Virus record (IMG/VR): IMGVR_UViG_3300038760_000071
Location: 16,260-80,259 of that record
Direction: 5' to 3' (one strand)
Origin: a virus
Length of the DNA: 64,000 bases
The position numbers and the translations under genes are program-made. Each line of letters starts with the position of its first letter. Within the stretch, counting starts at the first letter, position 1. The notes beneath the pieces were generated by a model. That model had not been told where the DNA came from, searched no databases, and saw only the letters and a program-made list of their open reading frames with translations. This document shows, piece after piece, positions 16,529 through 63,389 of the stretch.

Positions 16529-17329
16529 CTAGTTTTTCAACTCTTTATTTTCATTGTGAATCGTCTTATTATGTATGTTTAAAAATATCTTAGACTCTAT
16601 AGGTGATAAATTGTAGAATGTATTTGTACCTGGTAATATTTTCTGGAAGAACATGTATATTAATTCATAATAGGATTTTATATCTACCCTATATATGTTT
16701 GAGATAAATTGCATAACACCATTACCTACTATATCAACCTTTATCTCCTCAATACCAAATTGATCATTTTGCTGTATAATTGTAATATTAAGCAGCTCGT
16801 TAGATATATTATCTAAAAATTTATTAATTATAGTGAATACATTAGCTGGTAGTTTACTCATAACCTGATTTTGTTCAGACACAGTTAAGTCTTTAAATTC
16901 TACTCGCTTATTATTAATAGTAATAAATTTAATAACCGATGTTAATAGATCGTCAATATCCTCGAAGAATGAGCAATTTGGTATACCTAAGCCTATTGTA
17001 AGATTGTCTACCACTATCTCCGTATCTAAATCTTTAAAGTTAGATTCCAGCTTCTCTAAAACTGTATCTAAGCTAATATCCACATTCTTACCATCTTTTG
17101 TTGTGAACGATAATGTCTCGCCAACAAACAACATCCTCACATATATCAACATATAAAATCTATCATAAATATCAAGATCTTTATCTAAATATAACTCCTC
17201 AAATAATTCATTTAACCCAACTAAATCATTATTTTCACAAAACTTTATAATATTTATATATTCCTTATTCTTAAGTTCGCGAACTCGCCGCTTTTTATTA
17301 CTTGGGAGAGTTATTTCTGCTGTAAACAT
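16529..17329 (-). CDS. Baseplate hub assembly protein (gp26/gp51-like)
   Basis: LPSNKK.RVREL, DRFYMLIYVR..FVGETL and MSKLP motifs; resembles the adjacent gene. Confidence 0.55.
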   Translation of the reverse strand: MFTAEITLPSNKKRRVRELKNKEYINIIKFCENNDLVGLNELFEELYLDKDLDIYDRFYMLIYVRMLFVGETLSFTTKDGKNVDISLDTVLEKLESNFKDLDTEIVVDNLTIGLGIPNCSFFEDIDDLLTSVIKFITINNKRVEFKDLTVSEQNQVMSKLPANVFTIINKFLDNISNELLNITIIQQNDQFGIEEIKVDIVGNGVMQFISNIYRVDIKSYYELIYMFFQKILPGTNTFYNLSPIESKIFLNIHNKTIHNENKELKN

Positions 17330-21772: not shown

Positions 21773-23266
21773 TTATGCTAAAGGCTCATATCCAAACATT
21801 GATAGCTCATTCATATCATCTTGAGCTTGATCAGCACCCATACCGAAAACTATAGGCGGTAAGCAAGAATTATTATCACCCACTATTTCATTATCTAAAT
21901 ATAAAGATGTTGCATCTTCAAAATATTGAATACCGAAATCCATTTGTTCAATAGTAGCAGGTTTACCTCGCTCATCTAGTTCCACAATTTCAAAAAATCT
22001 TTCTGTTATTTCTTTCTCTAGAATGAACAGAGCGTATAGCAATGACATCACTCTATCATCATGATGACTTCTCCTAGCCTTCCATGTACCGTTTGGCCAT
22101 CGAACAAAATTCTTAAGCTCAGTTAAAGTTTCTATATCATTAATCTGAACTGCTCGTACATCATTAATAAAATATCGCATGTTTAATACACCCTGATATT
22201 TTGTATTAGTATGAGCAATCATACCTAGCATTATATTTTTCCTATGAGCCGCTTTATTACCATATGATACAATTTTCTCATATCCCATATCATTCGCTAA
22301 CCTATCTACAACTTGTGCACCACAATTATTACGCTCAATTAATGCCAACGGCATGCCGTAGTTACGGAGAACAGAATATACCTTAGTTGCAAATTCAAGA
22401 GGAGGTATTTTATTGCTAGTATAACAAGCAACCTGCCGTATATCTTTAATATCTGTTATATCTAATATTTGTATACATGATGAGTCGGCACCAACACCCT
22501 CCGCTGTATCAACACCAGCAACATAAACACGTGATGGGTCTGCCTCTTCCCATATCTTATAATGACCATCATCTAAAATAATTTTTGGATCTCGAGTCTT
22601 AGAAACCATCTCCTCAAATAAATCATCATCAATTGATGATTCACCTGTTGATAAAAATTCGCAATTAAATTCTTGTCTCCACGCATCATTTGATCCAATT
22701 GCCTGTCTAGTAGATTTAACCCAATCATCATCTCTATCCGGCACTTCATGCCACATAATTTTATCATGCGCCCAGCCATTTTCACCATCCACTGCACCCT
22801 TATATAATGTATGAAATAGATTATCATTACCATTTGCGGTACTACATACAAATACCTTGGATTTCTTCGACGATGTAATTACTGGAAAAACTGACTTCCA
22901 AAACTCCTCAATTAGGTGAGTGTTATGGGAGAGAATACCGTTAGTATAATACTTATGCGTCCTCTCAACCTCAACAAAATCATAAACCTTCTCTTCACGA
23001 CCAATATCAATAATATCAACAACCTCACATAGACCATCTACAGTTTTAATTCTATGACCTATTGAATCACATGCAAGAATAACATCCCCAGCTGCATCAA
23101 TAAACCCATGGTTTTTAGATACGTGTATATAATCACCGTTATCTAAAACAACTTGAAATAGCTTCTTCTTTGAATATTCAGCAATACCCTTAAAGTCTCT
23201 CCAACCCTCATCTGTTTCTATTTCCCATTCATCATTAGGAATGAATCTTTCTATATCTTCTCGCAT
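21773..23266 (-). CDS. terL: Terminase large subunit, C-terminal fragment, with an N-terminal split-intein C part (IntC2, aa 1-115)
   Basis: ...VYDFVEVERTHKYYTNGILSHN|THLIEEFWKSVFPVITS; then STANG, QEFNCEF, GVDTAEG, IERNN and HDDRVMS motifs of gp17. Confidence 0.92.
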   Translation of the reverse strand: MREDIERFIPNDEWEIETDEGWRDFKGIAEYSKKKLFQVVLDNGDYIHVSKNHGFIDAAGDVILACDSIGHRIKTVDGLCEVVDIIDIGREEKVYDFVEVERTHKYYTNGILSHNTHLIEEFWKSVFPVITSSKKSKVFVCSTANGNDNLFHTLYKGAVDGENGWAHDKIMWHEVPDRDDDWVKSTRQAIGSNDAWRQEFNCEFLSTGESSIDDDLFEEMVSKTRDPKIILDDGHYKIWEEADPSRVYVAGVDTAEGVGADSSCIQILDITDIKDIRQVACYTSNKIPPLEFATKVYSVLRNYGMPLALIERNNCGAQVVDRLANDMGYEKIVSYGNKAAHRKNIMLGMIAHTNTKYQGVLNMRYFINDVRAVQINDIETLTELKNFVRWPNGTWKARRSHHDDRVMSLLYALFILEKEITERFFEIVELDERGKPATIEQMDFGIQYFEDATSLYLDNEIVGDNNSCLPPIVFGMGADQAQDDMNELSMFGYEPLA

Positions 23267-24426
23267 AAGTCTTCTTTTGTTATTATCTTAAAAGCATAAT
23301 CATTCTCTCTACACCACAATCGAGCTGCTTCAAACTTCGACTGATTCAAAGGTTGATTTACAAACTCACGTGGCTTTACCTCGTATAATACTTTATTTAC
23401 CTGATCACAAAAATCGACAATGTAAACTCGTTCCTTATTATCATATGTGTAAGGAATTCGAATTAATTCATAATCTAAATGAGGATTATTTTCATGAAAC
23501 ATTACCTCCCAACTACTACGATAATTATTAAGTCCAGTTAACTCTGAATATAACTTTTTATTGGAATATCTGTTGTTTGTATTTGGTGTAAATTCTCCGG
23601 TTAAAATCTTATTCCTCATAACATCGCTCATCTTTTTATATATTCCCCTAGCTCTATTTTTTTTTGTGAGTTTATCTCTCTTATCTTTTGTCCACGTCTT
23701 CTTATTTGACGTAGATATCTTGCTTTTTGTTGTTTCGCTATGATGGTATCCCCTACGAGATTTCACTCTCCGCTCTTTAACATCACCAGATTGCAAATAA
23801 GACAAATCACGATCCTTCCCAATAGTACTCAAAACATCACTAATACATCGCTTCTTACTACACGTTTTATTCAAGAAGAATGTATTCCTATTTTTAAAGC
23901 TGCAATAATCACCACATATACAGTATATTGAATCATTACACATACTTGCAAATTTATATTTAATATCCTCAATACCTTCTGTATGTTTAGATATATTGTG
24001 AATTAAGTCCTTATCATTTAGCAATGATGTATAGGCTGCTCGTTGAACATAGTCAGATAATCGTAGCATCGTCTCATCCGGAGGCATTGATATACCATCT
24101 TCAAAGATACCATCTTTTAATCTATCAATAAAGGATGCAATTGACTTTCCACTAAACGACACACCACCTTTAACATAGCCACGTTTATAGCTAATAAACT
24201 TCAAGTCTGGTAGGTAGTCGACATCATTAACTATATGATATAACTTTTGACCGAGTGGTAGCTCATCTAACGTAGGTGTATCTCTATAATACTCATTTAT
24301 AAAATTATAAACCTTCTCACCATCTTCGTATTTATCATACCATGCTCTATAATATGAGTTTTTATTAAGCTTCTTATCCTCAAAGAAATCAACTATACAT
24401 GACTGCATATAACGTTTATCGATCAT
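23251..24426 (-). CDS. Free-standing homing endonuclease (NUMOD3-like DNA-binding + TnsA-like PD-(D/E)XK domain)
   Basis: HHSETTKSKISTSNK and YRSSWE...YELIRIPY...YIVDF...EVKP motifs; lies between the halves of split intein 2. Confidence 0.7.
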   Translation of the reverse strand: MIDKRYMQSCIVDFFEDKKLNKNSYYRAWYDKYEDGEKVYNFINEYYRDTPTLDELPLGQKLYHIVNDVDYLPDLKFISYKRGYVKGGVSFSGKSIASFIDRLKDGIFEDGISMPPDETMLRLSDYVQRAAYTSLLNDKDLIHNISKHTEGIEDIKYKFASMCNDSIYCICGDYCSFKNRNTFFLNKTCSKKRCISDVLSTIGKDRDLSYLQSGDVKERRVKSRRGYHHSETTKSKISTSNKKTWTKDKRDKLTKKNRARGIYKKMSDVMRNKILTGEFTPNTNNRYSNKKLYSELTGLNNYRSSWEVMFHENNPHLDYELIRIPYTYDNKERVYIVDFCDQVNKVLYEVKPREFVNQPLNQSKFEAARLWCRENDYAFKIITKEDLCEKI

Positions 24427-24434
24427 ATATTTAT

Positions 24435-24902
24435 TTATGTCTTTTGGATAATATTCTCAATACTTCTTGTGACTATCTCCCCTGTATTTTTATTACGTAG
24501 CCTTACTGTAGTATCTTTAGACACACACTCAATGAAAGCCATCTCATCAATCACTAAGCATTGATGACTTAATACACCGTTAGCGTAATATGTATGAGTT
24601 TTCTCAACTTCTAGCAGCTCGTATACTTTACTATCATCAGTGTAAGTGGCAATATCGGTAATTTCAATACCACCATATAATTTATTTTTAATTAAAAGAT
24701 CTTTTGCATAAACGATCTCCTCGTTTTCTGCTAACAGTTTATGTAGAGGTGTACATATTAACTCTTTATCACTAGAGAGTGTGAGTTTAATTTTTGAAGG
24801 GTTACTACCGATTATAAGCCCTTTAAAGTCTCTGAAACCGTCGTTTGTTAGTACTTGATATTTGCTATTTTTAAAGCATTTATATTTTGTTAAGTCTGCC
24901 AT
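24435..24902 (-). CDS. terL: Terminase large subunit middle fragment: IntC1 (114 aa) + 11-aa Walker B extein + IntN2 (30 aa)
   Basis: ...HTYYANGVLSHQ|CLVIDEMAFIE|CVSKDTTVRLRNKNTGEIVTRSIENIIQKT. Confidence 0.9.
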   Translation of the reverse strand: MADLTKYKCFKNSKYQVLTNDGFRDFKGLIIGSNPSKIKLTLSSDKELICTPLHKLLAENEEIVYAKDLLIKNKLYGGIEITDIATYTDDSKVYELLEVEKTHTYYANGVLSHQCLVIDEMAFIECVSKDTTVRLRNKNTGEIVTRSIENIIQKT

Positions 24903-24906
24903 CTTA

Positions 24907-25824
24907 CTATTTTATTTTTGTTTCGAGATTTGTACCTCTTTTTGGGAAGCATTTAGGACAAGCGGGTCTATGACCAATAGATAAATCATGATAAAATCTA
25001 GCGTCACACTCTTGACATACCCATTTATATTTTTTATACAGTGCAACTCCGTTATACGTCTCATCCAACTTAACGTTATAATCTGTCTCAATTTTAGAGA
25101 TTAATTTAACTTGCTTTGTAAAAATGGCGCGCTGCGTAATAGCCTCAGATTGCATTGGGTTATCTACACCATATTTTTCATTCAATGTCTTTCGAGCTTT
25201 ATTTTTATAATCTTCAGTCTGAAAAAAGTGATCAACACCGTATTTTAAGTTATTATGTTTAACTCGTGTTGTCTTAAGCTTAGATATATCGCTACACGTT
25301 TTATTACTCCATGTATTAATCACTTTACTTTTAAAATCCTCGCTCTGCTGGTATATCTCGCTCCCGTATTTCTCCTGGTTGGTTGCCTTACTATGTGATT
25401 GACCGGCTTTTGATTGCAACCAAGACGTTGCACCATATTTCTCTATATTAGTTAATTTAATCTCCTCAACATTATATTTATTACTACATTTACGACAACA
25501 AAACTTACCATACCCGGATTTAAAATCCCGGTATTTGAGAATACTATTACACTGCATGCATGTTGGTGTCTCTGATATATTATGACACACATTATACGCA
25601 TTACGAGCAAATGTTAACTCAGAGTCATATAGTTCATGTTGCTTTATAAATGTCACTTCATCACCGTGGAGATATTTCGGAAAAACCTTAGGTATATTTG
25701 TAAGCGTTAATAGTACACTATTCACATCCATAATAGTATTTATTACCCAATTGGGTAAAGCCACCGGTAAAGGTATTATATTTTTAATTGTCCAGGAATA
25801 TAGGAAGTAACTCCCCACCTTCAA
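24907..25824 (-). CDS. Homing-endonuclease-like protein with EKYG repeats and zinc ribbons, apparently lacking its nuclease domain
   Basis: Repeated EKYG/LKYGV units and CxxC pairs; ends just after CPKCFP; lies between the halves of split intein 1; true start may be downstream (MDVNSV). Confidence 0.55.
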   Translation of the reverse strand: MKVGSYFLYSWTIKNIIPLPVALPNWVINTIMDVNSVLLTLTNIPKVFPKYLHGDEVTFIKQHELYDSELTFARNAYNVCHNISETPTCMQCNSILKYRDFKSGYGKFCCRKCSNKYNVEEIKLTNIEKYGATSWLQSKAGQSHSKATNQEKYGSEIYQQSEDFKSKVINTWSNKTCSDISKLKTTRVKHNNLKYGVDHFFQTEDYKNKARKTLNEKYGVDNPMQSEAITQRAIFTKQVKLISKIETDYNVKLDETYNGVALYKKYKWVCQECDARFYHDLSIGHRPACPKCFPKRGTNLETKIK

Positions 25825-27478
25825 ATTCAGCTGCTAACTCCTCCATGGAGCAATCAAATGTTAACCCAGTTTCTTTATCTTTCAACGTTATTATTGTCTC
25901 CCCGTCGACACAGTTGACGGATTGGCCACGGGCTGCTGACCCGGTCGTAGTAGTAATACCTATACGAGAGCCATTCTCAAGGGTCATGGACGTTTTGGCA
26001 TATTCTTTAACAGGCGGCTTAAGCCAGTTAGGTAGTTCCTCATATGCCATCCGAACTCTTTGAAATATTTCAATCGCAGTAGCTTCTTTGTTAGCTACTA
26101 GCAATATTCGCTGATCTGCATTAAAGCATGCTTGCCAGAGGATATAAATTGTCATCATTGTCGAGTTGTGAGTAGGTATATACTGATTACCTGCGAGAAA
26201 TTGCGAATCTTCACTATCAACAGTTATACACCTAACAGGAACCGATTCAACAAGCTCTATATTCTTTATAAAGTGATACTGCCCCCTTATTTTAAAGTTA
26301 TGCTTCTTCTCTTGATGCTTTATTCTTTTCTGCTTAAACGATAATAGAGCTACATCTTCAATTGGTTTAAATGTTATAGATGAGCATGGCTTACATTCCA
26401 CACCATTAAGTGTCGGTATATAGTCTTTTAATGTAACCTTATACCCTAGACTTTCAGTTAACTGCTTTACCTGTCTAGTGAGATTCTTATTTGTGTTATA
26501 AAACTGACATGTACCTGCTTTATTTATATAGCCATCACTATCAACTAAACCTTGCAGTAACTGTAATCGTTGCTCTCTACTCGCTAACATATAATCAACG
26601 GGTATATGTTTATTATTGAGTAAGTTATTATGTCTTAATAACGAACTAAGACTCTTTGTTTGTATATCAGACTCAACAGTAGGGCGAATAAAATAATTTT
26701 TCGAATTGTAGTTTTTAATAATAAGCTTATCAAATTGCTCTATCTTATCAAATATTTTAATCTGTTCGTCTATATCTCTATGACCAACTGTTATTGTACC
26801 GGTAGCAGATGTACCATCACCTAACCACAAGCCTAGGACATAGGGATGTATAGGTAATTCTTTCTCTATACCCCCAACACCATTAATACATGTTGGTATT
26901 CTGTGATTAGGCTCAGGTCTCTTCTTACCACTATATAGTGTGTCTAAAATATCTCTTGTTGTCTTAACTGACCCACTACACTCCTTTCTACGATCACCCC
27001 TCGTCTGAGTAAACCATAAATGATCACCATCTGCAACTATCTCCTCCCCGTTATCAAATGTTACTTTATAACAGTCACGATCATATAATACATCATGCGC
27101 TTTTAAAACACTACACTGATCACCCTTATTATCGTATATAACATCACCAGATTTAATAGACCCCATATCCATCCACCCGGTTGGTGTTGGTATTGGTGTA
27201 TCTAATGCTAGTGCCTTACCTATCTGTCTACTTGCTAGCTGTATAAAGAATCGATTATCTCTCATCTTACGGATGGCTCGCTTTTGAGCAGGATATAGCT
27301 TAATAGTCTCACGCCCACGATCAAGATTAATAATATAGAAATAATTTTCAGCAAAATAGAGTATATTCTGACTCGCTTTCTTAAGCGCGTTCACTTGCGA
27401 TGTAGTATATTCACCTTTCCAGTTAACATTTGGTAGGTTTTTGTTACCCATGTAGAACATATTACTTTGCTGAGCCAT
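25784..27478 (-). CDS. terL: Terminase large subunit N-terminal fragment with a cis intein and a C-terminal split-intein N part (IntN1, last 42 aa)
   Basis: LYPAQ adenine-binding motif; Walker A SRQIGK|intein|ST; ends RGQSVN|CVDGETIITL... Confidence 0.92.
   Translation of the reverse strand: MAQQSNMFYMGNKNLPNVNWKGEYTTSQVNALKKASQNILYFAENYFYIINLDRGRETIKLYPAQKRAIRKMRDNRFFIQLASRQIGKALALDTPIPTPTGWMDMGSIKSGDVIYDNKGDQCSVLKAHDVLYDRDCYKVTFDNGEEIVADGDHLWFTQTRGDRRKECSGSVKTTRDILDTLYSGKKRPEPNHRIPTCINGVGGIEKELPIHPYVLGLWLGDGTSATGTITVGHRDIDEQIKIFDKIEQFDKLIIKNYNSKNYFIRPTVESDIQTKSLSSLLRHNNLLNNKHIPVDYMLASREQRLQLLQGLVDSDGYINKAGTCQFYNTNKNLTRQVKQLTESLGYKVTLKDYIPTLNGVECKPCSSITFKPIEDVALLSFKQKRIKHQEKKHNFKIRGQYHFIKNIELVESVPVRCITVDSEDSQFLAGNQYIPTHNSTMMTIYILWQACFNADQRILLVANKEATAIEIFQRVRMAYEELPNWLKPPVKEYAKTSMTLENGSRIGITTTTGSAARGQSVNCVDGETIITLKDKETGLTFDCSMEELAAEFEGGELLPIFLDN
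26165..27214 (-). mobile_element. 350-aa class-3 intein with LAGLIDADG endonuclease, inserted in the TerL Walker A motif
   Basis: Starts with Ala (ALALDTPIPTP); HLW in block B, VRCITV in block F, IPTHN|S end; LGLWLGDG and LQGLVDSDG LAGLIDADG motifs. Confidence 0.9.
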
Positions 27479-33304: not shown

Positions 33305-33508
33305 ATGAAAATACTTAACAAATATAATGATTCAATTGAAAACCTATACACTGCCTTAGACAAAGTTAGAGATGTACTAGACGGATTAGAGGATGAAGAG
33401 CTAGACTCTCTAACTGATAGGTTTATTGAACAGGTTGAAGATTGTATCAATGACGGTGAGGTAACATGTCATGAGCTCAAGGATTTTTTAGAAAATTATG
33501 AAGCATAA
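33305..33508 (+). CDS. Small acidic hypothetical protein
   Basis: 67-aa ORF in an operon-like run. Confidence 0.55.
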   Translation: MKILNKYNDSIENLYTALDKVRDVLDGLEDEELDSLTDRFIEQVEDCINDGEVTCHELKDFLENYEA

Positions 33509-34343
33509 CGTACTAATATTAGGAGGCGGGTATATTGGCACCCATTTATATAAAGTGTTAAATGTATCTAATACTGTTACAATATTAACTAAAAAGGATA
33601 TAAATTATAATAATAATTACTTCTTTAAAAAATACCTATCTAATAATAGTTATGACTATGTTATCAACTGTAGTGGATTTTGTGGTAAACCAAATGTAGA
33701 TCAGGCTGAGGTTGAGAAGGAGAAGTGTTGGGAGCTTAATGTAACGGGACCAACATCCGTTAATAGTATATGTCGTGAACTAAGCATACCGTATATCCAT
33801 GTATCCTCAGGATGTATATACACGGGGTATGATAAGCTGTGGACAGAGAAAGACGCACCCAACTTTGGTGTTTTTAATAATATATCTTCGTTTTACTCTA
33901 AATCTAAGCACGCATATGAGCTATCAAATAGTGATTATGGGCTAACTATTCGAATCCGGATGCCGTTTGATAATGATGTTACATGTAACAGATCTATTTT
34001 ATATAAGCTACTAAAATATAATAATATTATTGATTTTAGAAACTCAAAAACATATATACCTGATCTTTGTAGTTTCATTCAATCCTATATACTCCAAAAA
34101 AATAATAATACTGATATAATTAATTTTGTTAATCCGGATGCATTGTTTACTACAGAGGTGGTTGATTTACTAACTGAAGCCGGTAAGATTAATTATAAGT
34201 GGAAATATGTTAGTATGAGTGATCTAGATATTACAGCAGATAGGTCAAATTGTGTATTATCAACTACGAAATTAAAAGAGACATATAATTACACCCCGCT
34301 AACTGAAACAGCAGCTATTAGAAAATCTTTAAATTTACACTAA
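33498..34343 (+). CDS. NAD-dependent sugar epimerase/reductase (RmlD-like)
   Basis: GGGYIG, GKPNVDQAE, SSGCIY and YSKSK SDR motifs. Confidence 0.85.
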   Translation: MKHNVLILGGGYIGTHLYKVLNVSNTVTILTKKDINYNNNYFFKKYLSNNSYDYVINCSGFCGKPNVDQAEVEKEKCWELNVTGPTSVNSICRELSIPYIHVSSGCIYTGYDKLWTEKDAPNFGVFNNISSFYSKSKHAYELSNSDYGLTIRIRMPFDNDVTCNRSILYKLLKYNNIIDFRNSKTYIPDLCSFIQSYILQKNNNTDIINFVNPDALFTTEVVDLLTEAGKINYKWKYVSMSDLDITADRSNCVLSTTKLKETYNYTPLTETAAIRKSLNLH

Positions 34344-34391
34344 AACTAACAAAGTGCTGGCAATCAACAAAAAGTTAATTATATTAATATA

Positions 34392-34928
34392 ATGTATGAC
34401 CATGACCACAGTCTATATTACAGGCAACTTAAAGAGAAGGATCCAGACAAAACTATAGTTGCGTTCACGGGTGGAAACTTTGATTACATTCACTATGGCT
34501 ATGTTGTGACCTTCGAAGAAGCAAAGAGACATTGTGATAAGTTCATTGTTTTCTTGCAGAAAGACCCATCATCAACAAGATATACTAAGTATAAGCCTAT
34601 TGTACCATATTATGAGAGGTACAAAACATTAATGTCAATTAAGCATATTGATGAAGTATATATGTATCAAACTGAGAGTGAGCTGTATGATTTAATTAAA
34701 TTGTTTAAACCTGATATTAGAATACTCGGCGAAGATTATCTCGGTAAATCATTTACTGGAGATGATTTGCCACCTAAAGTAATTTATACCACTAGATCTC
34801 ATGAATGGTCTACAACAAAAATTAAAAATAGGATTGCTGCTATGACGTATGCACAAAATCCAGATATGTTTAAAGGTATAAATATTGATCAAATTAAAAA
34901 TAATAACTTCTCGAGTATAGAACAATAG
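34392..34928 (+). CDS. Cytidylyltransferase (TagD-like)
   Basis: GNFDYIHYGY (HxGH-like), LGEDY and RSHEWSTTKIK motifs. Confidence 0.85.
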   Translation: MYDHDHSLYYRQLKEKDPDKTIVAFTGGNFDYIHYGYVVTFEEAKRHCDKFIVFLQKDPSSTRYTKYKPIVPYYERYKTLMSIKHIDEVYMYQTESELYDLIKLFKPDIRILGEDYLGKSFTGDDLPPKVIYTTRSHEWSTTKIKNRIAAMTYAQNPDMFKGINIDQIKNNNFSSIEQ

Positions 34929-34931
34929 AGT

Positions 34932-35900
34932 ATGAAAAGATATCTAGTAACAGGTGGCTGCGGTTTCATTGGCTCATACGTGGTGGAAAAATTATTAAAA
35001 GATGAAAATAATTTTATCACCGTTATCGATAAAATGGGTATAGGTTCATCACCAGATAATATTATAAATGGGCATCCAAGAGTAAATTATATCTTTAGAG
35101 ATATTGCAACTGGGGATATTGCAGCTGCAATACCATCAGGCAAGATGGATTATGTGATACATCTAGCAGCAGAGTCACATGTTGATCGATCAATTGAAGA
35201 GTCCTCACCGTTTGTGCAAAGTAACGTAGCCGGTACAGTTAATATATTGAATTATGTTAAAGACGTTGGTTCTAGAATGGTTCATGTTTCTACTGACGAG
35301 GTGTATGGTCATCTAAATCTTACTTCACCACCTTTTAGAGAGAGTGACTCCCTCCAGCCAAGATCACCATATGCAGCATCTAAAGCATCCTCTGATTTGT
35401 TTGTTCAATCATACTTTAAAACATATAATATTGATGTATCCATTACAAGGTGTTGTAATAATTATGGTCCACGACAGCATCATGAGAAGCTGATACCTAC
35501 TATTATTAGATCAATTATATCTGGTAAAAAGGTTCCTATATATGGGAATGGTATGAATATACGAGAATGGATCCATGCAAAAGATCATGCTGCAGCAATA
35601 ATAGAGGTACTATATATGAATGCTCCTGGCACAGTTTTTAATATACCAGGATCAAAACACCTAACCAATATTGATATTACTAAAAAAATTATTGAAATAG
35701 TAGAGAAACAATTACCGTCTATAAAGAGAGACGGGGACGATTATATTGAATTTGTAGTAGATAGGCTCGGGCATGATTTTAGATATGCAGTCGCGACACA
35801 ATATAATCTACAAGCAGTTGAATATCAGCAAGAGTTTTGTCTTGAAGATACGGTTGCACATTATCTTAAAAAATATAGTGAATTAAAACAAATACTTTAA
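34932..35900 (+). CDS. rmlB: dTDP-glucose 4,6-dehydratase
   Basis: GGCGFIGS, AAESHVDRS, STDEVYG, YAASK and DRLGHDFRY motifs. Confidence 0.92.
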   Translation: MKRYLVTGGCGFIGSYVVEKLLKDENNFITVIDKMGIGSSPDNIINGHPRVNYIFRDIATGDIAAAIPSGKMDYVIHLAAESHVDRSIEESSPFVQSNVAGTVNILNYVKDVGSRMVHVSTDEVYGHLNLTSPPFRESDSLQPRSPYAASKASSDLFVQSYFKTYNIDVSITRCCNNYGPRQHHEKLIPTIIRSIISGKKVPIYGNGMNIREWIHAKDHAAAIIEVLYMNAPGTVFNIPGSKHLTNIDITKKIIEIVEKQLPSIKRDGDDYIEFVVDRLGHDFRYAVATQYNLQAVEYQQEFCLEDTVAHYLKKYSELKQIL

Positions 35901-39558: not shown

Positions 39559-40227
39559 ATGAAATCTAAATATGCTATAGTGTGTGGAAGTAGATCAGGT
39601 TCTTCATATTTATGTGACCTGTTAAAATCAACAAACAGAGCTGGTGATCCAAAAGAATACTTTAACACTGATATAACCTTTGATCATTTAAGAAACGGCA
39701 AAGGTTATATCGATAGCATTGTTAATGGTACTAAAACAGAGAATGATGTTTTTGGAGTTAAGATCGTTGGTAAAAAACAATTGGCAGCATACGCAGAAAG
39801 CTCGTTAGATATTACCCACTGTGTTCTTTTAACACGACACGATACTATTGATCAAGCGATTTCCCGATATAAAGCGTGGAAGACAAATATCTGGCATTTT
39901 AAGGATGGTATGACATCCATTCCAAATATTGAATACTCTTATGGAGATATCAAATGGTGTTTAGATGAGGTTATTGACGAGAATAAATTTTACAAAACTT
40001 TATTAAAGGGCACAAATTACCTAGAAATTGTATATGAAGATGATTTATTAGAAAATCCCTCTCAAACAATTGTTTGTATTTTAGAACACCTAGGAATCTC
40101 TATAGAGGAACTTCCTGAACTAGTGTCAACTCAAATTATTTTTCGAAATGAGCAATCTAAACAGTGGAAGACAAAATTCATTCAAGAACTAAAATATAAA
40201 AAAACAGCTATAGATAATTATAGGTAG
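39559..40227 (+). CDS. Stf0-family sulfotransferase
   Basis: SRSGSSYLCDLL (PAPS loop), PKEYF, R...QAISRYKA and YEDDL motifs. Confidence 0.85.
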   Translation: MKSKYAIVCGSRSGSSYLCDLLKSTNRAGDPKEYFNTDITFDHLRNGKGYIDSIVNGTKTENDVFGVKIVGKKQLAAYAESSLDITHCVLLTRHDTIDQAISRYKAWKTNIWHFKDGMTSIPNIEYSYGDIKWCLDEVIDENKFYKTLLKGTNYLEIVYEDDLLENPSQTIVCILEHLGISIEELPELVSTQIIFRNEQSKQWKTKFIQELKYKKTAIDNYR

Positions 40228-40586: not shown

Positions 40587-40661
40587 GCGGGTGTAGCTCA
40601 GTGGTAGAGCCTCACGTTGCCAACGTGACTGTCATCGGTTCAAATCCGGTCACCCGCTCCA
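40587..40661 (+). tRNA. tRNA-Gly(GCC)
   Basis: GCGGGTG acceptor stem, TTGCCAA anticodon loop, GGTTCAAATCC T-arm, encoded CCA. Confidence 0.92.
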
Positions 40662-41691: not shown

Positions 41692-41756
41692 AGTTATTGG
41701 CTATTACATTGCATAATGTAATACTATATTATTTGGAACTTCAATATAATAGTAGT

Positions 41757-42158
41757 ATGGCTATTAACTTTAAGCGATTGGAGAAGATAACGAGAAGTCT
41801 TAAACCAATTTGCCAATCTGGCAAATCCTTTCACGCAACGTTTGTCTATAGAAAAAACAAGCTTGTATGTACCGCGTATAATAATTATAAAAAGCAACAC
41901 CCATATTATAAATTTGGTACTTACAAATCCACAAAACGGGGTAGTGTAAATTATATACCAGGTATACACTCAGAGGTAGCTGCATTACTAAAAATGGGTA
42001 GAGTAGACTGCTCAAATTTAACATTTATAAATGTTCGGATTGATAATTCGAATAATGTAGCGATCTCAAAGCCGTGTCCTAACTGTCAAAGACTGTTAGA
42101 TAGTATAGGTTATAAAAAAATATGGTATTATACTGGTAATAAATATATTTGCTGTTAA
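41757..42158 (+). CDS. Zn-dependent cytidine/dCMP-deaminase-fold protein
   Basis: HSEVAAL and SKPCPNC motifs; start reassigned to the ATG after a junction-motif variant. Confidence 0.75.
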   Translation: MAINFKRLEKITRSLKPICQSGKSFHATFVYRKNKLVCTAYNNYKKQHPYYKFGTYKSTKRGSVNYIPGIHSEVAALLKMGRVDCSNLTFINVRIDNSNNVAISKPCPNCQRLLDSIGYKKIWYYTGNKYICC

Positions 42159-43605: not shown

Positions 43606-44241
43606 ATGGGAATACAAAATAATACAGTCGAACTATTAGGTTATTATGGAAGCGATGAAATTATCGCTTGTAGCGCTTGGACATCAACATCAAGAAAACT
43701 TACCAATGAAAAGAGAGAACGGATTCCTAAACTCATCGATATGCTCTGGCGAGAAGGGCACCACACGCCCTTTGAAAAAGCTACATGTCACTTTCTTGTT
43801 AATTGTGATATTGCTAGTCATATTCATCTACTCAAGCATCGCGTTGCTTCTATTAATGCTGAATCAGCTAGATATAAAGAGTTAAAGGAGGACAAATATT
43901 ACATTCCAACTGACTGGAGCAATAAATGGAGAGAGAAATTAGAACAGTTTAACAAGGATGCAAACAACCTCTACCATGAATGCTTAGAAGAGCTTGAACC
44001 AGAGATTGGTAGGAAAAGATCTAAAGAATCGGCTAGATTTTTTAAACCATATGCATCACAAATACAGGCAGATATTATGTTTAACTTTAGATCGTTTGCA
44101 AACTTTTTAAAGTTACGTAATAATGAACACTCACAACTTGAGATTAGAGAAATTGCTCAACAGATGATAACCCTAGTTGAAAATATTGAAGGTAATCCAT
44201 TTAAACATACAATTACATCATGGAAACAACATTTAAATTAA
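43606..44241 (+). CDS. thyX: Flavin-dependent thymidylate synthase
   Basis: GHHTPFE, LLKHRVASINAESARY and LKLRNNEHSQLEIRE motifs. Confidence 0.92.
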   Translation: MGIQNNTVELLGYYGSDEIIACSAWTSTSRKLTNEKRERIPKLIDMLWREGHHTPFEKATCHFLVNCDIASHIHLLKHRVASINAESARYKELKEDKYYIPTDWSNKWREKLEQFNKDANNLYHECLEELEPEIGRKRSKESARFFKPYASQIQADIMFNFRSFANFLKLRNNEHSQLEIREIAQQMITLVENIEGNPFKHTITSWKQHLN

Positions 44242-50066: not shown

Positions 50067-50255
50067 ATGCAAATCACAGGAGACCATAATATATCCACTA
50101 AACTTAGAAATAGTATCACCGATTTACATTTGCGTGTGGCTGATAAGGTATATGAACATGTTACAGAAGAGGTTTGGTACGATACCCGTTCTAATGTTTG
50201 GCACACTGTACTGGTTAGCGTTCGAGACAGCATACGTGATGTGTTAGACAGATGA
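50067..50255 (+). CDS. Trp/Val tetrad-repeat microprotein (diverged)
   Basis: EEVWYDTRSNVW...SVRDSIRDV. Confidence 0.55.
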   Translation: MQITGDHNISTKLRNSITDLHLRVADKVYEHVTEEVWYDTRSNVWHTVLVSVRDSIRDVLDR

Positions 50256-50494
50256 AAGTAGGGAACATATATAATACAGATATGAAAGTAGGTGATATAT
50301 CTTATGAGATACGTAATAAAATGCAGGGCGAAGTGGGGTTTGAGTTGTGGGATAAGGTATTGTGCGAGGTAGGAGATGATGTATGGGATGAGGTCTGGCA
50401 AGAGGTCTGGCATGAGGTGGGGCGATCGGTGAGGTTTGGGCTAAAGGATGTGATAGATTATAATGTAGGGAACTCTAGCATAATAAGGTTATGA
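50252..50494 (+). CDS. Trp/Val tetrad-repeat microprotein
   Basis: DDVWDEVWQEVWHEV. Confidence 0.65.
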   Translation: MKVGNIYNTDMKVGDISYEIRNKMQGEVGFELWDKVLCEVGDDVWDEVWQEVWHEVGRSVRFGLKDVIDYNVGNSSIIRL

Positions 50495-50679
50495 TTTTAA
50501 AGGAGGTAAGATATAAAGTATGGAACAAAATATGGCGTAAGGTAGAGAATGAGGCTCGGCAAACGATACAGGGTAAGGTAATACACGAGCTTTGGAATGA
50601 AGTAGAGGATGCGGTAGAGTATAGCCACTACATAGCAGATACGGTAGAAGATAAGATAAGAAACTCTACCATAACATAG
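50491..50679 (+). CDS. Trp/Val tetrad-repeat microprotein
   Basis: KVWNKIWRKV; ends in a junction-motif variant (RNSTIT). Confidence 0.65.
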   Translation: MILKEVRYKVWNKIWRKVENEARQTIQGKVIHELWNEVEDAVEYSHYIADTVEDKIRNSTIT

Positions 50680-50681
50680 AT

Positions 50682-50852
50682 ATGAATTTAACTAGTATAT
50701 GGTGTGAGGTAGAGGATGAGGTAGAGGATGGGGTAGAGGAAGAGGTATGGCGTGAGGCATGGCGCGCGGTGGAGCATAAGGTATGGTATGAGGCCACTCA
50801 TGAGATGAGAAGTACGGTAAGAGATAGGGTAAGGAACTCTGATATAATATAG
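50682..50852 (+). pseudogene. Disrupted tetrad-repeat microprotein copy
   Basis: ATGAATTTAACTAG start like its paralogs, but the frame stops early; repeat units continue to the next motif. Confidence 0.5.
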
Positions 50853-50884
50853 ATATGGAATGAGGTAGAAGATGCTGTATAGAT

Positions 50885-51073
50885 ATGAATTTAGAAGAGT
50901 TTAGGTATGAGATAGGGAACAAAATACGGCACAAGTTACAGCATGCGGCTTATTATAAGTTAGTGAGTAGTATAAGGGGTGAAGTAGGGCATGAGATATC
51001 AAGCAAGGTAAGGGTTGAGGTATGGGGCAAGGTATGTAATAAGGTAGAACATGCGGTATGTAATAAGGTATAG
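50885..51073 (+). CDS. Trp/Val tetrad-repeat microprotein
   Basis: MNL start; EVWGKVCNKV. Confidence 0.65.
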   Translation: MNLEEFRYEIGNKIRHKLQHAAYYKLVSSIRGEVGHEISSKVRVEVWGKVCNKVEHAVCNKV

Positions 51074-51105
51074 CATGCGGGTTGGGCGAACAGCTTTAAC
51101 ATAAT

Positions 51106-51330
51106 ATGAGTATGGGAATAGATATGAATTTAGCTGGAGTAAGGAGAGAGTTGGTGGCCAAAGTAAGGCATGAGTTGCGGGGTGAGATAAGGAGTATGGT
51201 GAAGGATGAGGTATGGGGTGAGGTAAGAGATAACATATGGAGTGGGGTAGAGAACGAGATATGGAATGAGGTAAGGCGTAATGTATGGAACAGGGCATGG
51301 AATGAGGTGAGGAGCTCTAATATAATATAG
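51106..51330 (+). CDS. Trp/Val tetrad-repeat microprotein
   Basis: Likely start at MNL (51124); ends RSSNII within the motif. Confidence 0.65.
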   Translation: MSMGIDMNLAGVRRELVAKVRHELRGEIRSMVKDEVWGEVRDNIWSGVENEIWNEVRRNVWNRAWNEVRSSNII

Positions 51331-51332
51331 AT

Positions 51333-51527
51333 ATGAGAGTAGATCAGATATCGTATGAGCTGTGTAGTAAAATGCAGGTAGAGTTAGGGGCTAAGTTATG
51401 GGATAAAGTATTGAGTAGGGTAGAAGATGCTGTATGGAGTGAGGTATGGGTTAAGGTAGAAGATGCTGTATGGGGTGAGGTTTGGGATAAGGTAGAGCGT
51501 AAGGTAAGGAACTCTAATATAATATAG
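51333..51527 (+). CDS. Trp/Val tetrad-repeat microprotein
   Basis: N-terminus paralogous to the 50282 copy; ends RNSNII. Confidence 0.7.
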   Translation: MRVDQISYELCSKMQVELGAKLWDKVLSRVEDAVWSEVWVKVEDAVWGEVWDKVERKVRNSNII

Positions 51528-51529
51528 AT

Positions 51530-51880
51530 ATGAATTTGAATGAGATACAGTGTAAGGTGGAGGATAAGGTATGGGATGAGATCTGGGATAAGGTATGGGA
51601 TGAGATCTGGGATGAGGTAAGGGGTGAGGTAGGGGATAAGGTATGGGGTGAGATATGGGATGAAGTATGGGGTGAGGTAGAGGTTAAGGTAAGGGATGAA
51701 GTATGGGATGAAGTATGGGATGAAGTATGGGATGGGGTATATGATATCATCTGGGGTGAGGTATATGATAACATATTGAATGAGATATGGGATAAGGTAA
51801 GGTGGGGAGTAGAAGATAAGGTAAGGGGTGAGGTATTTGATAAGGTAGGGCGTAAGATAAGGAACTCTAATATAATATAG
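51530..51880 (+). CDS. Trp/Val tetrad-repeat microprotein (longest copy)
   Basis: (V/I)W(D/G)(E/K) units; ends RNSNII. Confidence 0.7.
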   Translation: MNLNEIQCKVEDKVWDEIWDKVWDEIWDEVRGEVGDKVWGEIWDEVWGEVEVKVRDEVWDEVWDEVWDGVYDIIWGEVYDNILNEIWDKVRWGVEDKVRGEVFDKVGRKIRNSNII

Positions 51881-51882
51881 AT

Positions 51883-52119
51883 ATGAATAAGGTATGGGAT
51901 AAGGTAGGGGATGAGATGGAGGATAAGATAAGGGATAAGGTAAGGGATGAGGTATGGGGTGAGGTAGAGCGTAAGGTATGGGGTGAGGTAAGGGATAAGG
52001 TAAGGTATAAAGTAAGGGATGAGGTATGGGGTGAGATAAAGTGTAAAGTATTTAATAAGGTAGAAGATGCTGTATGGGGTGAGATATGGGATGAGGTAAG
52101 GAACTCTGATATAATATAG
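51883..52119 (+). CDS. Trp/Val tetrad-repeat microprotein
   Basis: Ends RNSDII. Confidence 0.7.
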   Translation: MNKVWDKVGDEMEDKIRDKVRDEVWGEVERKVWGEVRDKVRYKVRDEVWGEIKCKVFNKVEDAVWGEIWDEVRNSDII

Positions 52120-52121
52120 AT

Positions 52122-52319
52122 ATGAATTTGAATACGAAGATAGGGTATAAGATATGGAATGAGGTAAGGCGTAATGTATGGAACAGGGCATGGAATGAGG
52201 TATGGTACGAGGTAAGGGATGAGGTAAGAGAAGAAGTATGGGGTAAGGTAAGGTATGAGGTAGGGGGTGAGGTAGGGGGTAAGGTAGAGCGTAAGATAAG
52301 GAACTCTGATATAATGTAG
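52122..52319 (+). CDS. Trp/Val tetrad-repeat microprotein
   Basis: Ends RNSDIM; shares a ~50-nt block with the 51106 copy. Confidence 0.7.
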   Translation: MNLNTKIGYKIWNEVRRNVWNRAWNEVWYEVRDEVREEVWGKVRYEVGGEVGGKVERKIRNSDIM

Positions 52320-52321
52320 AT

Positions 52322-52471
52322 ATGAATTTGAATGAGGTAGGGAGTGAGGTATGGGGTGAGGTAGAGCGTAAGGTAAGGGATAAGGTAGAAGATGCTGTAT
52401 GGGGTGAGATATGGGATAAGGTAAGGGATAAGGTAAGGTATAAGATAGGTAACACTGATATATCGATATAA
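52322..52471 (+). CDS. Trp/Val tetrad-repeat microprotein (49 aa)
   Basis: MNLNEVGSEVWGEVERKVRDKV...; below the ORF-track cutoff. Confidence 0.6.
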   Translation: MNLNEVGSEVWGEVERKVRDKVEDAVWGEIWDKVRDKVRYKIGNTDISI

Positions 52472-54051: not shown

Positions 54052-54384
54052 ATGAAAGCAACCGGTGCACGTTTTAAAGTACGGCATAAATTATGGAATA
54101 GGGTCAGGGGATCGATACAGAGTGGTGTGTGGGAAGAGGTAAAGAAGGCCGTCCAGGACCTGGTACATAATAGAATACCGAACAAGGTTCAGAACAAGGT
54201 ACAGAATAAAGGCCATAATGAGATATATCATGATGTAGAAGATGATGTATGGAATAAGGTATATAAGAGGGTAGAAGATAAGGTATGGAATAATGTATGG
54301 AATAAGCTACATAATACTGGAATAGCCTCAACGAAAAAGGCACTCAAAAGGAACTCTGATATAATAGATATACAGAAGAGATAA
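54052..54384 (+). CDS. Tetrad-repeat protein (outlying paralog)
   Basis: DDVWNKVYKRVEDKVWNNVWNKL. Confidence 0.6.
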   Translation: MKATGARFKVRHKLWNRVRGSIQSGVWEEVKKAVQDLVHNRIPNKVQNKVQNKGHNEIYHDVEDDVWNKVYKRVEDKVWNNVWNKLHNTGIASTKKALKRNSDIIDIQKR

Positions 54385-54780: not shown

Positions 54781-54854
54781 GCGGGTATAGCTTAATGGTA
54801 AAGCTGCAGCCTTCCAAGCTGACTATGTGAGTTCGATCCTCTCTACCCGCTCCA
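54781..54854 (+). tRNA. tRNA-Gly(TCC)
   Basis: GCGGGTA acceptor stem, CTTCCAA anticodon loop, GTTCGAT T-loop, CCA. Confidence 0.9.
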
Positions 54855-56973: not shown

Positions 56974-57049
<76 letters not shown>

Positions 57050-57190: not shown

Positions 57191-57391
57191 GTGAAGAGGG
57201 AGATGAATAGATTATATATCATTAGCATCGTGTTATTATTACCCAGCTGTGCTAGCAATCCACAAAGTCCTTCATTACTGGATCAATACCGAGCAGTGAA
57301 AGACTTACTGGGGCTCTATGATAGAAACATCACACCAGCAGAAGCCACCCCGGACGAGCCTATATGGCTCCCTCGATATGAGACGCCCTAA
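57191..57391 (+). CDS. Putative lipoprotein
   Basis: Hydrophobic signal with LLPSC lipobox-like motif. Confidence 0.5.
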   Translation: MKREMNRLYIISIVLLLPSCASNPQSPSLLDQYRAVKDLLGLYDRNITPAEATPDEPIWLPRYETP

Positions 57392-57458
57392 TAGCTTAAC
57401 TGGATAAAGCATCGTGCTTCTAACGCGATCGATGGGGGTTCGAGTCCCTCTTAGGGTA
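57385..57458 (+). tRNA. tRNA-Arg(TCT)
   Basis: GCCCTAA/TTAGGGT acceptor, TCGTG-CTTCTAA-CGCGA anticodon arm, GGTTCGAGTCC T-arm; no encoded CCA. Confidence 0.85.
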
Positions 57459-58030: not shown

Positions 58031-58322
58031 CATGGATCGCCCTAACGAGATACTCAACCCGATTATCCGAGAGATAGCTGAATATTATGAGATGTCCATC
58101 GGGTGGGATAAGTCTCAAGACTCAGCCTGGTTGAGATGCACCATCACACATGAGGATATGGGTAAGCATTTCTACTGGACTAGTGATGGTAGATGTAGTA
58201 GTAGGAGATCGTTTGAGCTGTTTATGGACAAGCTTCAAGAGTTCTTTATCGAAGTTGGGGAAGAATTCAGCCCCGTGGGGCTGATCAGCCCCGTGCCGAA
58301 AGACACCGGCGCGCCGTGGTAG
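58011..58322 (+). CDS. Hypothetical protein
   Basis: Co-directional ORF. Confidence 0.5.
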   Translation: MENLIVNMDRPNEILNPIIREIAEYYEMSIGWDKSQDSAWLRCTITHEDMGKHFYWTSDGRCSSRRSFELFMDKLQEFFIEVGEEFSPVGLISPVPKDTGAPW

Positions 58323-58350
58323 GGAAAAGGAAACCTGATATAATATTATT

Positions 58351-58512
58351 ATGGAAGAAATTAAAAAAGAATTGTTTGATAAGATGAGTTATGATGTTAG
58401 TAATGGATTTGGAAGGAAGGAGTTGAAGGAATGGTATGGAGAGGAGAATGTTAAGTTGTATTTAGAATATGGGAAGAAGAAGGATTTGTTTGAAGGTGAG
58501 TTGGAGGGGTAG
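58351..58512 (+). CDS. 53-aa early protein encoded without any cytosine
   Basis: MEEIKKELFDKMSYDVSNGFGRKELKEWYGEENVKLYLEYGKKKDLFEGELEG; starts at a junction motif. Confidence 0.7.
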   Translation: MEEIKKELFDKMSYDVSNGFGRKELKEWYGEENVKLYLEYGKKKDLFEGELEG

Positions 58513-58544
58513 GTTTTAAAAAGGAAATCTGATATAATAATAGT

Positions 58545-58811
58545 ATGCAAGTAATTAATAAAGAAAGTAAGATGAAAGAAGTAGTTGTTGTTGGATATGA
58601 GGAGATTGGATTCGAGTTTAGTTTATGTGATGAGTTATATGAAGATGGGTGTGGAAAAGATATTGAAGGTAGGTTTTTAGATGTAGAATTTTTAAAGATT
58701 ATGTTTGACAGTAGGTTGGAGAATGAAGAGGATACATCTAAAATTGATAAGATTGATGATATGTTAGTAAGTATTAAGGATTTGAATAATGAAGTGTTAG
58801 TTGAGTTTTAA
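58545..58811 (+). CDS. Acidic early protein, C-depleted gene
   Basis: Starts at a junction motif; 5 C in 267 nt by manual count. Confidence 0.7.
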   Translation: MQVINKESKMKEVVVVGYEEIGFEFSLCDELYEDGCGKDIEGRFLDVEFLKIMFDSRLENEEDTSKIDKIDDMLVSIKDLNNEVLVEF

Positions 58812-58891
58812 TAAGTAAGGGGGAGGAGTTCCGAAAGGAACGAACCGGGGGGAGTTAGTTAAAAAGGAAACCTGATATAATAAATAATAGT

Positions 58892-59092
58892 ATGAAAGTA
58901 ATTAATAAAGAAAGTAAGATGAAGAGAGAAGAAGTTGTTAAGTTGGTTGAAGATTGTAATAAGAAGTTGAGAGAGTTGCGTAAGTTGTATATGAATGATT
59001 TTTTAGATGATGAAGGAGATGAGATTGTTGAGAACTTTTTTTATGAAGTGAGGGATTTGGTTGAGGAGGATTGGGCTTCAGAGGATTATTAG
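58892..59092 (+). CDS. Acidic early protein, C-depleted gene; paralog of 63144-63389
   Basis: 4 C in 201 nt by manual count; DCNKKLRELRKLYMNDFLDDEGD. Confidence 0.7.
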   Translation: MKVINKESKMKREEVVKLVEDCNKKLRELRKLYMNDFLDDEGDEIVENFFYEVRDLVEEDWASEDY

Positions 59093-59124
59093 GTTTTAAA
59101 AAGGAAACCTGATATAATAATAGT

Positions 59125-61563: not shown

Positions 61564-62466
61564 ATGAGGGTGATATCATCGAAGGAAGAAGCATCTAAAT
61601 ATGGCGCTCTAGATGATCCAGTAAAGATGTATTTCAAGCAGATGGGTAAAGCTCCTCTGCTGAACCGAGAGCAGGAGATTGAGATATCTAAGCGCATCGA
61701 GACAGCAGAGAGTAAGGCCATCATGATGAACGACAGCCCCGAGCGTCATCAGCATTGGATGCAGGAAGCGCAACGAGCCAAGACTGAGATGGTTGAAGCG
61801 AATCTCCGGTTGGTGATCTCCATTGCCAAGAAGTATATGAATCGTGGTCTACCGTTCCTCGATTTGATCCAGGAAGGTAACCTAGGGTTGATGAAGGCTG
61901 TGCGCAAGTTTGAGTATCGCCGCGGGTACAAATTCTCAACCTACGCCACGTGGTGGATTCGTCAGGCGATCACTAGCTCAATTGCCGACCAGTCAAGAAC
62001 GATTCGTATACCGATGCACGTGCTAGAGCTGATTAACAAACTTAGGCGCGTGGAGAAGCAGCTCGTACAGGAGTATGGTTACGAGCCAACCACTGAAGAG
62101 ATTGCTGCAGAGGTTCATCTACCAGTTGGGCGTGTACGTTCTGTCATGACAATGGCTCAACAGACCATCTCCCTTGAAGCACCCGTTGGTGGGAGTACTA
62201 CCACGTTTGGTGATTTCATTGAAGGTCATGCCGCTGAAGAGTCGGCAGAAGAGAATAGCTTATCACACCTCCATGATACAGTCCAACATGTGCTGAACAC
62301 TCTGACAGAGCGTGAGCGCGAGATCATAGTTCTTCGCTCCGGGTTGATCGATGGTCGCAGCTCCACCCTCGAGGAGGTAGGGAGACAATTTCAAGTCACG
62401 CGTGAGCGCATTCGTCAAATCGAAGCGAAGGCTCTCCGGAAGATGCGCGCGGTTATGCCACGCTAG
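61564..62466 (+). CDS. rpoD: RpoD-like group 1/2 sigma-70 factor
   Basis: [12 protein letters not shown] (region 1.2), [43 protein letters not shown] (region 2), [24 protein letters not shown] (region 4.2). Confidence 0.93.
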
Positions 62467-63143: not shown

Positions 63144-63389
63144 ATGAGAAACAAAGATCGGCTGATTTGGGAAGCATTTCAATCTAATAGTACGAGTAAG
63201 TTAAATAAAGAACAAACTAAAGAGTTGGTTAACGATTGTTATAAAAAGTTCAGAGAGTTAAATAGGTTGTATAAGCAAGATTTTTTAGATGAAGCCGGTG
63301 ATAACGTTGTTGAGGAGTTTTTATATGATTTGCATGCTTCGATTGAGTTGGATCTTGGCATTGCCACTCGGCCCCATCAACGCGGGTAG
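63144..63389 (+). CDS. Late protein, paralog of 58892-59092
   Basis: TATAAATA upstream; DCYKKFRELNRLYKQDFLDEAGD. Confidence 0.65.
   Translation: MRNKDRLIWEAFQSNSTSKLNKEQTKELVNDCYKKFRELNRLYKQDFLDEAGDNVVEEFLYDLHASIELDLGIATRPHQRG

Follow-up and report, generated by a model that had tools for sequence, protein, structure and literature searches.

What pressure would lead a virus to write three consecutive early genes almost without cytosine? The question is raised by a locus on an 80,259-bp IMG/VR virus contig (estimated to be 38% complete), bases 16260–80259 of which, 64,000 nucleotides in all, form the window analysed here. Judged by its baseplate, tail sheath and terminase matches, the contig is that of an uncultured marine T4-like myovirus whose kinship to T4 is only distant: the best isolates share 30–43% identity, in tail sheath and terminase only, and no isolated phage was matched by DNA or by the orfB protein. 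The locus itself is present in seawater metagenomes of several independent studies. From approximately 34 kb to the window end, small genes are encoded on the plus strand, most of them with a conserved junction motif upstream, and the C-poor block lies among these, with the following features:

58323..58350, plus strand: junction (AAAAGGAAACC-TGATATAAT) with the early promoter of orfA, 6 nt ahead of its ATG
58336..58528, plus strand: the window's longest stretch without C (193 nt), taking in the -10 element, the whole of orfA and the following spacer as far as the next promoter's C
58351..58512, plus strand: orfA, 53 aa, no C, without A, P, T, H or Q
58545..58811, plus strand: orfB, 88 aa, five C, a small alpha/beta protein
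58812..58871, plus strand: spacer with C, containing a 5-bp GNRA hairpin and differing among populations
58892..59092, plus strand: orfC, 66 aa, four C, early copy of a domain that is also encoded late by a C-normal gene
59093..59124, plus strand: junction motif and promoter of the next, C-normal gene, 3' boundary of the C-poor block
63144..63389, plus strand: paralogue of orfC with a T4-type late promoter box (TATAAATA) in front, 31 of its 246 nt being C

The 193-nt run and the C counts reported for the three genes in the first-pass annotation proved exact on recount (0 of 162 nt in orfA, 5 of 267 in orfB and 4 of 201 in orfC); the final C upstream of the run is at 58335, and C-free runs of this length are expected approximately 6e-13 times per 64 kb. 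Its statement that neighbouring genes behind the same motif have normal C content holds as well, with 15.3% C in the gene at 57671, 20.8% at 59125, 17.8% at 60026 and 13–23% in flanking genes overall. Near-total avoidance of Ala, Pro, Thr, His and Gln was likewise borne out: orfA has none of these residues, orfB two and orfC one, i.e. 3 of 207 residues where the remaining early genes would lead one to expect 45 of 207 (P = 4e-18). Where a residue does have a C-free codon, C-containing codons were used in 6 of 204 cases, whereas codon usage in the remaining early genes predicts 54 (P = 1e-19), so that C is depleted at the synonymous level too and the depletion is not explained by protein composition. 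The five and four C that orfB and orfC retain in the window point to a constraint somewhat relaxed here. The depletion ends at the cassette junctions, and the 60-nt spacer at 58812–58871 has C; a replication or terminus skew was therefore rejected, and the spread of the bias through flanking non-coding DNA, named at the outset as an observation that would speak against selection, was not found. A search of Rfam returned no family other than tRNAs, and a known RNA family was rejected as an explanation. Two further compositional oddities were recorded. A late gene on the minus strand (window 17117–17266) has a 150-nt C-poor sense stretch, which is an unrelated AT-rich patch. Upstream of the window, a 984-aa protein (L009 2414–5368, minus strand) has long (T/S)P(T/S)(I/V)TP repeats and a sense strand nearly G-free over 825 nt; by its sequence, this G-poor region is of low complexity and bears no relation to the C-free cassettes.

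We consider orfA, orfB and orfC to be real protein-coding early genes, because all three ORFs stay open although stop codons are C-free, dN/dS for orfB is 0.31 in the C-free clade of its alleles and 0.11 in the C-normal clade, and the structural model of orfB is confident (predicted fold beta-alpha-beta-alpha-alpha-beta, pLDDT 84), with a disordered leader of nine residues shared with orfC. This leader corresponds to near-identical in-frame segments of 27 nt (58545–58571 and 58892–58918, plus strand), encoding MQVINKESK in orfB and MKVINKESK in orfC, ahead of a second ATG; many homologues lack this leader, for which disorder is predicted, and either the second ATG may be the true start of both genes, or the leader may be part of the recombining junction. 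None of the three proteins belongs to a Pfam or PHROG family. Searches with Foldseek and VIA gave no convincing fold match (best Foldseek E-value 0.66, best VIA Z 5.2, both to unrelated proteins); a resemblance of the predicted orfB model to acidic anti-restriction DNA mimics (Ocr, ArdA, DMP12 and the like) is a weak lead, DMP12 ranking 23rd with Foldseek (E 3.1) and having an atlas score of 0.83. An anti-defence role, as suggested in the first-pass annotation, would be a candidate function to which no family or fold match points. The early orfC with its 4 C and the late paralogue with its 31 C provide a control within one genome: where the late copy uses a C-containing codon, orfC mostly has GAA, GAG or GAT. 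The first-pass description of the proteins as non-repetitive is correct; their acidity is partly a by-product of C removal, in which GAN codons stand in place of Ala, Thr and Gln codons.

The architecture of the locus bears on what the unit of this bias is. The conserved junction, AAAGGAAnnC-TGATATAAT with an ATG 6 nt further on, occurs in approximately 25 copies in the window, near variants included; exact matches to CTGATATAAT on the plus strand number 22 as against 0.6 expected, and the distance from junction to ATG is 6 nt in 20 copies, 7 in one and 10 in one. An extended -10 element so near to the ATG suggests leaderless mRNAs. No intrinsic terminator was found on the plus strand between 57300 and 60400, and the sole hairpin (58828–58841, 5 bp) is predicted to be no more stable than shuffled sequences are (z-score 0.34). 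Other marine populations miss single cassettes, with joints at 58278>58518 (without orfA) and 58858>59096 (without orfC), and C-free and C-normal alleles of orfB have the same promoter type, some of them behind an identical end of the upstream gene. Since both the boundaries and the presence/absence joints fall at junction motifs, the unit is, from comparison of these sequences, a swappable promoter-to-promoter cassette. The window also encodes a sigma-70-family factor of 300 aa with regions 1.2, 2, 3 and 4 (61564–62466, plus strand), a protein that might be a candidate reader of the TGATATAAT promoters. Among cellular proteins, primary sigma factors of Verrucomicrobiota are closest to it (65–76% in the best segment), those of Chlamydiota coming next, and this similarity hints at a host from the PVC group.

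Is the absence of C a peculiarity of one genome, or is it kept in homologues? Protein relatives were found for orfB (61), orfC (24) and orfA (23), all in marine metagenomes and nearly all without A, P, T, H and Q; each of the 23 orfA homologues has 0–1 of these residues. A profile search of 1.84 billion representatives yielded only 18 clusters, in which members of less than 50% identity still lack the five residues. Homologous DNA was drawn from 81 metagenome loci, and more than 17 copies of orfA in these loci all have 0 C. For orfB, two states were observed: 27 distinct alleles have 0–2 C per 237 nt, and 13 alleles have 16–38 C. The latter form one clade in the protein tree (support 100/99, in a tree possibly influenced by composition), so that one switch would suffice to account for them. 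The proposal that homologues should also be C-free is thus upheld for all except this one orfB clade, which is C-normal while sharing the promoter type and genomic position.

Variation among these alleles argues for selection on the nucleotide itself. The 27 alleles of the C-free orfB clade diverge to as little as 67% nucleotide identity, and 123 of their 237 columns are variable, A/G segregating in 59 columns and C/T in one, as compared to 26 columns with C/T in the C-normal clade. At four-fold sites of orfB, C was seen in 0 of 424 cases in the C-free and in 53 of 317 in the C-normal clade. Positions with C in C-normal alleles correspond to T, G and A in C-free alleles in proportions of approximately 45:27:27; we therefore rejected strand-specific C-to-T deamination, as G and A serve as replacements too and T is not enriched, in agreement with the initial argument against a general transcription-linked C-to-T bias. 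Among ten consensus differences of other marine populations inside the block, none creates a C, whereas the flanks show five C gains (four T>C, one A>C). Codons of the NNY type end in C in 63 of 3738 cases (1.7%) in C-free cassettes and in 2356 of 5875 (40%) in C-normal ones; as NNC and NNU codons are decoded by the same tRNAs, tRNA supply is not the cause, and selection at the tRNA level was rejected. We are highly confident that a cassette class is under nucleotide-level selection for a C-free sense strand, in line with the selection on mRNAs proposed in the first-pass annotation, and that purifying selection maintains this state in homologues. Judged from the alleles, it purges every cytosine, at both the amino-acid and the synonymous level and often from spacer and junction motif too. 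With a C-free coding strand, the message consists of A, G and U only, and the template is without G.

A second and larger C-poor block, overlooked in the first-pass annotation, and an outlying relative of its genes are located elsewhere in the window:

50252..52471, plus strand: array of ten tandem microgenes with tetrad repeats (V-W-D-E), the second C-poor block, most with the same promoter motif
54052..54384, plus strand: outlying member of the tetrad-repeat family, partly C-poor, with a C-free run at 54230–54306

The array has 2–4% C over 1.2 kb (51.4 to 52.5 kb), with a GC skew of up to 0.95. An eleventh tetrad-repeat copy just upstream (50067–50255) is C-normal. The array is made of amplified C-free 12-nt units, and its C-poverty is therefore partly inherited from the unit. 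The approximately twelve microgenes (50067–52471 and 54052–54384, plus strand) consist of 12-nt units encoding (V/I)-(W/R/G)-(D/G/N)-(E/K) and gave no family match; mostly they have their own promoter, the preceding ORF ending within the junction motif (RNSDII).

C-free cassettes form a class across relatives. The C content of 459 distinct ORFs behind the junction motif, taken from the relatives' loci and the window (a biased sample, the loci having been chosen for orfB), is bimodal, with 141 ORFs at 0–2%, a trough at 8–10% and a broad mode at 10–26%; exactly zero C was counted in 78 of them. Counts of families are rough, as single-linkage clustering put most C-free ORFs together, partly via the shared 9-residue leader. 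Over 258 kb of relatives' loci, C-free zones of the coding strand add up to 53.6 kb and G-free zones to 0 kb. In one relative, nine C-free cassettes follow one another with a total of 3 C over 2009 nt, and the cassettes to either side are C-normal. Within this nine-gene block (L024 2057–4074) the junction motif reads GGAAATnTAATATAAT, both Cs and the TG of the extended -10 having been lost, so that promoter variant and cassette state change together. ACA-specific cleavage by MazF, one of the pressures suggested in the first-pass annotation, is insufficient alone and was rejected as the sole cause: C is lost in all contexts, and those Cs that do remain in nearly C-free cassette ORFs often stand in ACA (39 of 236).

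Among IMG/VR homologues, orfB was found on one contig and orfA on none; a contig of 184.8 kb also has an orfB homologue. All contigs with closely related tail sheaths are 46 kb or less. Five larger T4-like contigs, retrieved via a conserved terminase segment and up to 93% complete, are without C-free runs of 120 nt (a single 80-nt run occurs in one of them), orfB homologues or TGT, and they probably belong to a different group.

Several other genes of the window are worth recording. The large terminase is spread over several genes (21773–27478, minus strand), the first part having an insertion of approximately 350 aa; in relatives without it, residues 1–524 are matched within 522 nt, a pattern consistent with inteins. 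Four phage tRNAs on the plus strand (40587–40661, 54781–54854, 56974–57049 and 57385–57458; Gly-GCC, Gly-UCC, Met-CAU and Arg-UCU) all decode codons still available to C-free genes (GGN, AUG, AGR), Arg-UCU decoding the sole Arg codons possible in them; this match may be coincidental, the phage being AT-rich. A cluster of sugar-nucleotide enzymes (33498–35900 and 39559–40227, plus strand) comprises an RmlD-like reductase, a cytidylyltransferase-like protein and an epimerase of the GDP-mannose-dehydratase type, together with a Stf0-type sulfotransferase, and its role could lie in the metabolism of surface sugars or in DNA hypermodification. A weak dCMP-deaminase-like protein and a ThyX thymidylate synthase (41697–42158 and 43606–44241, plus strand) are the usual thymidylate supply of phages and do not indicate cytosine replacement.

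What, then, could the selection act on? That it reaches down to the last C argues for a cost attached to each C rather than to a bulk property, and the restriction of the constraint to early promoters (orfC as compared to its late paralogue) points to the first minutes of infection. We propose that in this period each C would be a small, roughly constant cost to the transcript. A C-free message would be synthesised without CTP, would not be terminated by a chain-terminating C analogue such as ddhCTP, and would offer no target to a C-dependent RNA-binding or RNA-cleaving activity; a subset of early proteins would thereby still be made while C-containing messages, of host or phage, are not. Such a block on C might be a defence of the host, or else the phage's own means of shutting the host off. 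That the cost falls on the transcript and not on DNA as such is, in our estimation, slightly favoured; a transcript-level cost per C as the full explanation is possible but falls somewhat short of even chances, and independence from CTP or a C analogue specifically is doubtful. A tentative extension would make the C-free cassettes an expression class of their own, a three-letter 'safe mode': theirs would be the only messages completed and intact while all C-containing transcripts are blocked or destroyed, be it through CTP depletion, a chain-terminating C analogue or a nuclease directed at C, and the cassettes would encode proteins acting in, or ending, that period. A cost per C fits four models, namely CTP-free or terminator-proof synthesis, a C-directed RNA activity, a liability of template G, and a sequence-reading attack on DNA. 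The strand on which C is missing is a weak argument among them, because the coding strand needs ATG and GNN codons and cannot be G-free; for the same coding needs, causes at the DNA level would likewise leave the coding strand as the one without C. C-normal early genes with the same promoter and the C-normal orfB clade show that the constraint is neither universal nor tied to the protein family. In long blocks, junction motifs and spacers past the stop codons are also C-free, which a strictly per-gene transcript model does not require. A viperin-type host defence should affect other phage groups too, and we know of no C-free genes in these, which counts against a host defence as the cause.

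The least demanding alternative, that there is no selection on C and its lack is a by-product of deamination in highly transcribed DNA, of odd amino-acid composition or of repeat amplification, could draw on the array at 50.2–52.5 kb with its amplified units; we consider it very improbable, given that orfA, orfB and orfC are non-repetitive, that T is not enriched and G is markedly raised in both blocks of the window (over all C-free cassettes G rises by 9 points and T by 6.6), and in view of the mixed replacement of C, the synonymous exclusion, the normal composition of same-promoter neighbours and the missing C/T polymorphism beside abundant A/G polymorphism. Bulk composition might instead be what is selected, a C-poor, G-rich message being without YC-rich loading sites for Rho, or forming stable R-loops, or being nearly structure-free, so that read-through transcripts are completed and translated. 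Rho requires C-rich, G-poor RNA and silences foreign DNA; C-free cassettes have 0.17 YC dinucleotides per 100 nt as compared to 7.25 in C-normal ones, with predicted folding energies of -0.084 and -0.218 kcal/mol per nt, respectively, and the modest rise of G at synonymous sites, the lack of an intrinsic terminator on the plus strand at 57.3–60.4 kb and contiguous C-free cassettes of up to 2 kb all agree with this possibility. However, 2–5% C would already evade Rho and structure, yet 78 ORFs have exactly zero, there is no general drive towards G at four-fold sites, and the 13–23% C of same-promoter neighbours is left unexplained; we regard selection on bulk composition as unlikely.

About equally unlikely, in our view, is that modified G in the template, e.g. 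a 7-deazaguanine derivative, hinders host RNA polymerase or draws a host enzyme, with the genes read first being kept free of template G. Such a modification gives a cost per G, fits the early-only pattern of orfC and its late paralogue, would account for confinement to certain phage lineages and leaves G free to increase on the non-template strand. Nonetheless, TGT/DpdA (PF01702) was not found in the 80-kb contig (approximately 38% complete) or in a 49-kb relative carrying orfB, both of them fragments, in a search whose positive controls were matched in 14 of 14 genomes; the remaining 60% of the genome could encode it. It is absent from the five terminase-matched contigs as well, which are weak controls, as they are without orfB and long C-free runs. 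Among approximately 20 early and middle proteins compared with Pfam, there was no queuosine-pathway or recognisable base-modification enzyme, known 7-deazaguanine DNAs are transcribed normally, and template Gs are normal in most early genes of this phage. Avoidance at the DNA level, finally, would mean that a duplex with G confined to one strand, and C to its complement, can form no motif needing both, nearly all palindromic restriction sites among them, and that a mobile cassette is immune to sequence-specific attack. It is in its favour that the whole cassette, including spacer and junction motif, is the unit, that cassettes are mobile among genomes, that coding constraints suffice to put the C-free side on the sense strand, and that each C added among many Gs can form a new motif; the first-step-transfer DNA of T5, which is without EcoRI sites, is a precedent. 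We nevertheless hold it quite improbable, for the remaining genome is of normal composition and cuts there would still be lethal to the phage, the domain's late paralogue does contain C, and stepwise DNA entry is not indicated for T4-like phages.

The organisation of the locus, as distinct from its composition, has a counterpart. In the T4-type phages RB49 and phi1, PeSL (promoter-early stem-loop) cassettes are small, mostly orphan early genes in a hyperplastic region, each with a strong sigma70-like promoter, and are gained, lost and exchanged via recombination between repeated regulatory motifs (Arbiol et al. 2010, PMC2839356). Base composition is not discussed there (PMC2839356), and what is new here is that one base is excluded. 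A repeated, predicted sigma70-like early promoter before each small gene and the modular gain, loss and exchange at a repeated motif (joints 58278>58518 and 58858>59096) are shared with the PeSL cassettes; unlike in these, there is no terminator stem-loop, and the promoter lies 6 nt before the ATG in a leaderless-looking arrangement.

Selection of nucleotides for the sake of escape has precedents. Phages avoid restriction sites, and ACA-less mRNAs resist MazF; in both, as here, nucleotide selection beats codon preference and a sequence-reading activity is escaped. Those cases drop a word of 3 to 8 nt with composition nearly unchanged, whereas here a whole base and five amino acids are dropped in every context, and the residual Cs, in contrast to those of MazF-resistant messages, show no particular avoidance of ACA. 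Synthetic G-less and C-less cassettes are non-protein-coding laboratory constructs for in vitro transcription; they share with the present cassettes that the unit can be transcribed with three NTPs, but the latter are natural protein-coding genes under purifying selection. The first-step-transfer (pre-early) region of T5 encodes pre-early takeover functions and offers a parallel in that an early gene set is kept free of a vulnerability carried by the remaining genome; T5, however, avoids one site in the DNA that enters first, while the loss described here is strand-specific and takes in one base totally, and we know of no stepwise DNA entry in T4-like phages. Full-text literature searches returned nothing on cytosine-free phage genes, and, as far as these searches show, natural protein-coding genes that exclude one base and five amino acids have not been described before. 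The present analysis adds a lineage without a detectable guanine-modification gene (in a contig approximately 38% complete), a two-state gene family, a pair of early and late paralogues, and evidence at the population level.

A pattern that is sharp, selected, heritable and mobile reports a strong pressure in early infection, exerted by a reader of C in RNA, of G in the template, or of the CTP pool, and naming that pressure could reveal a new mechanism of defence or shut-off. The C-free and C-normal alleles of orfB, together with the early and late paralogues of orfC, are ready-made reagents for testing it, and, with the pressure named, the C-free signature would provide a simple means, readable from sequence, of finding those phage genes that act first.
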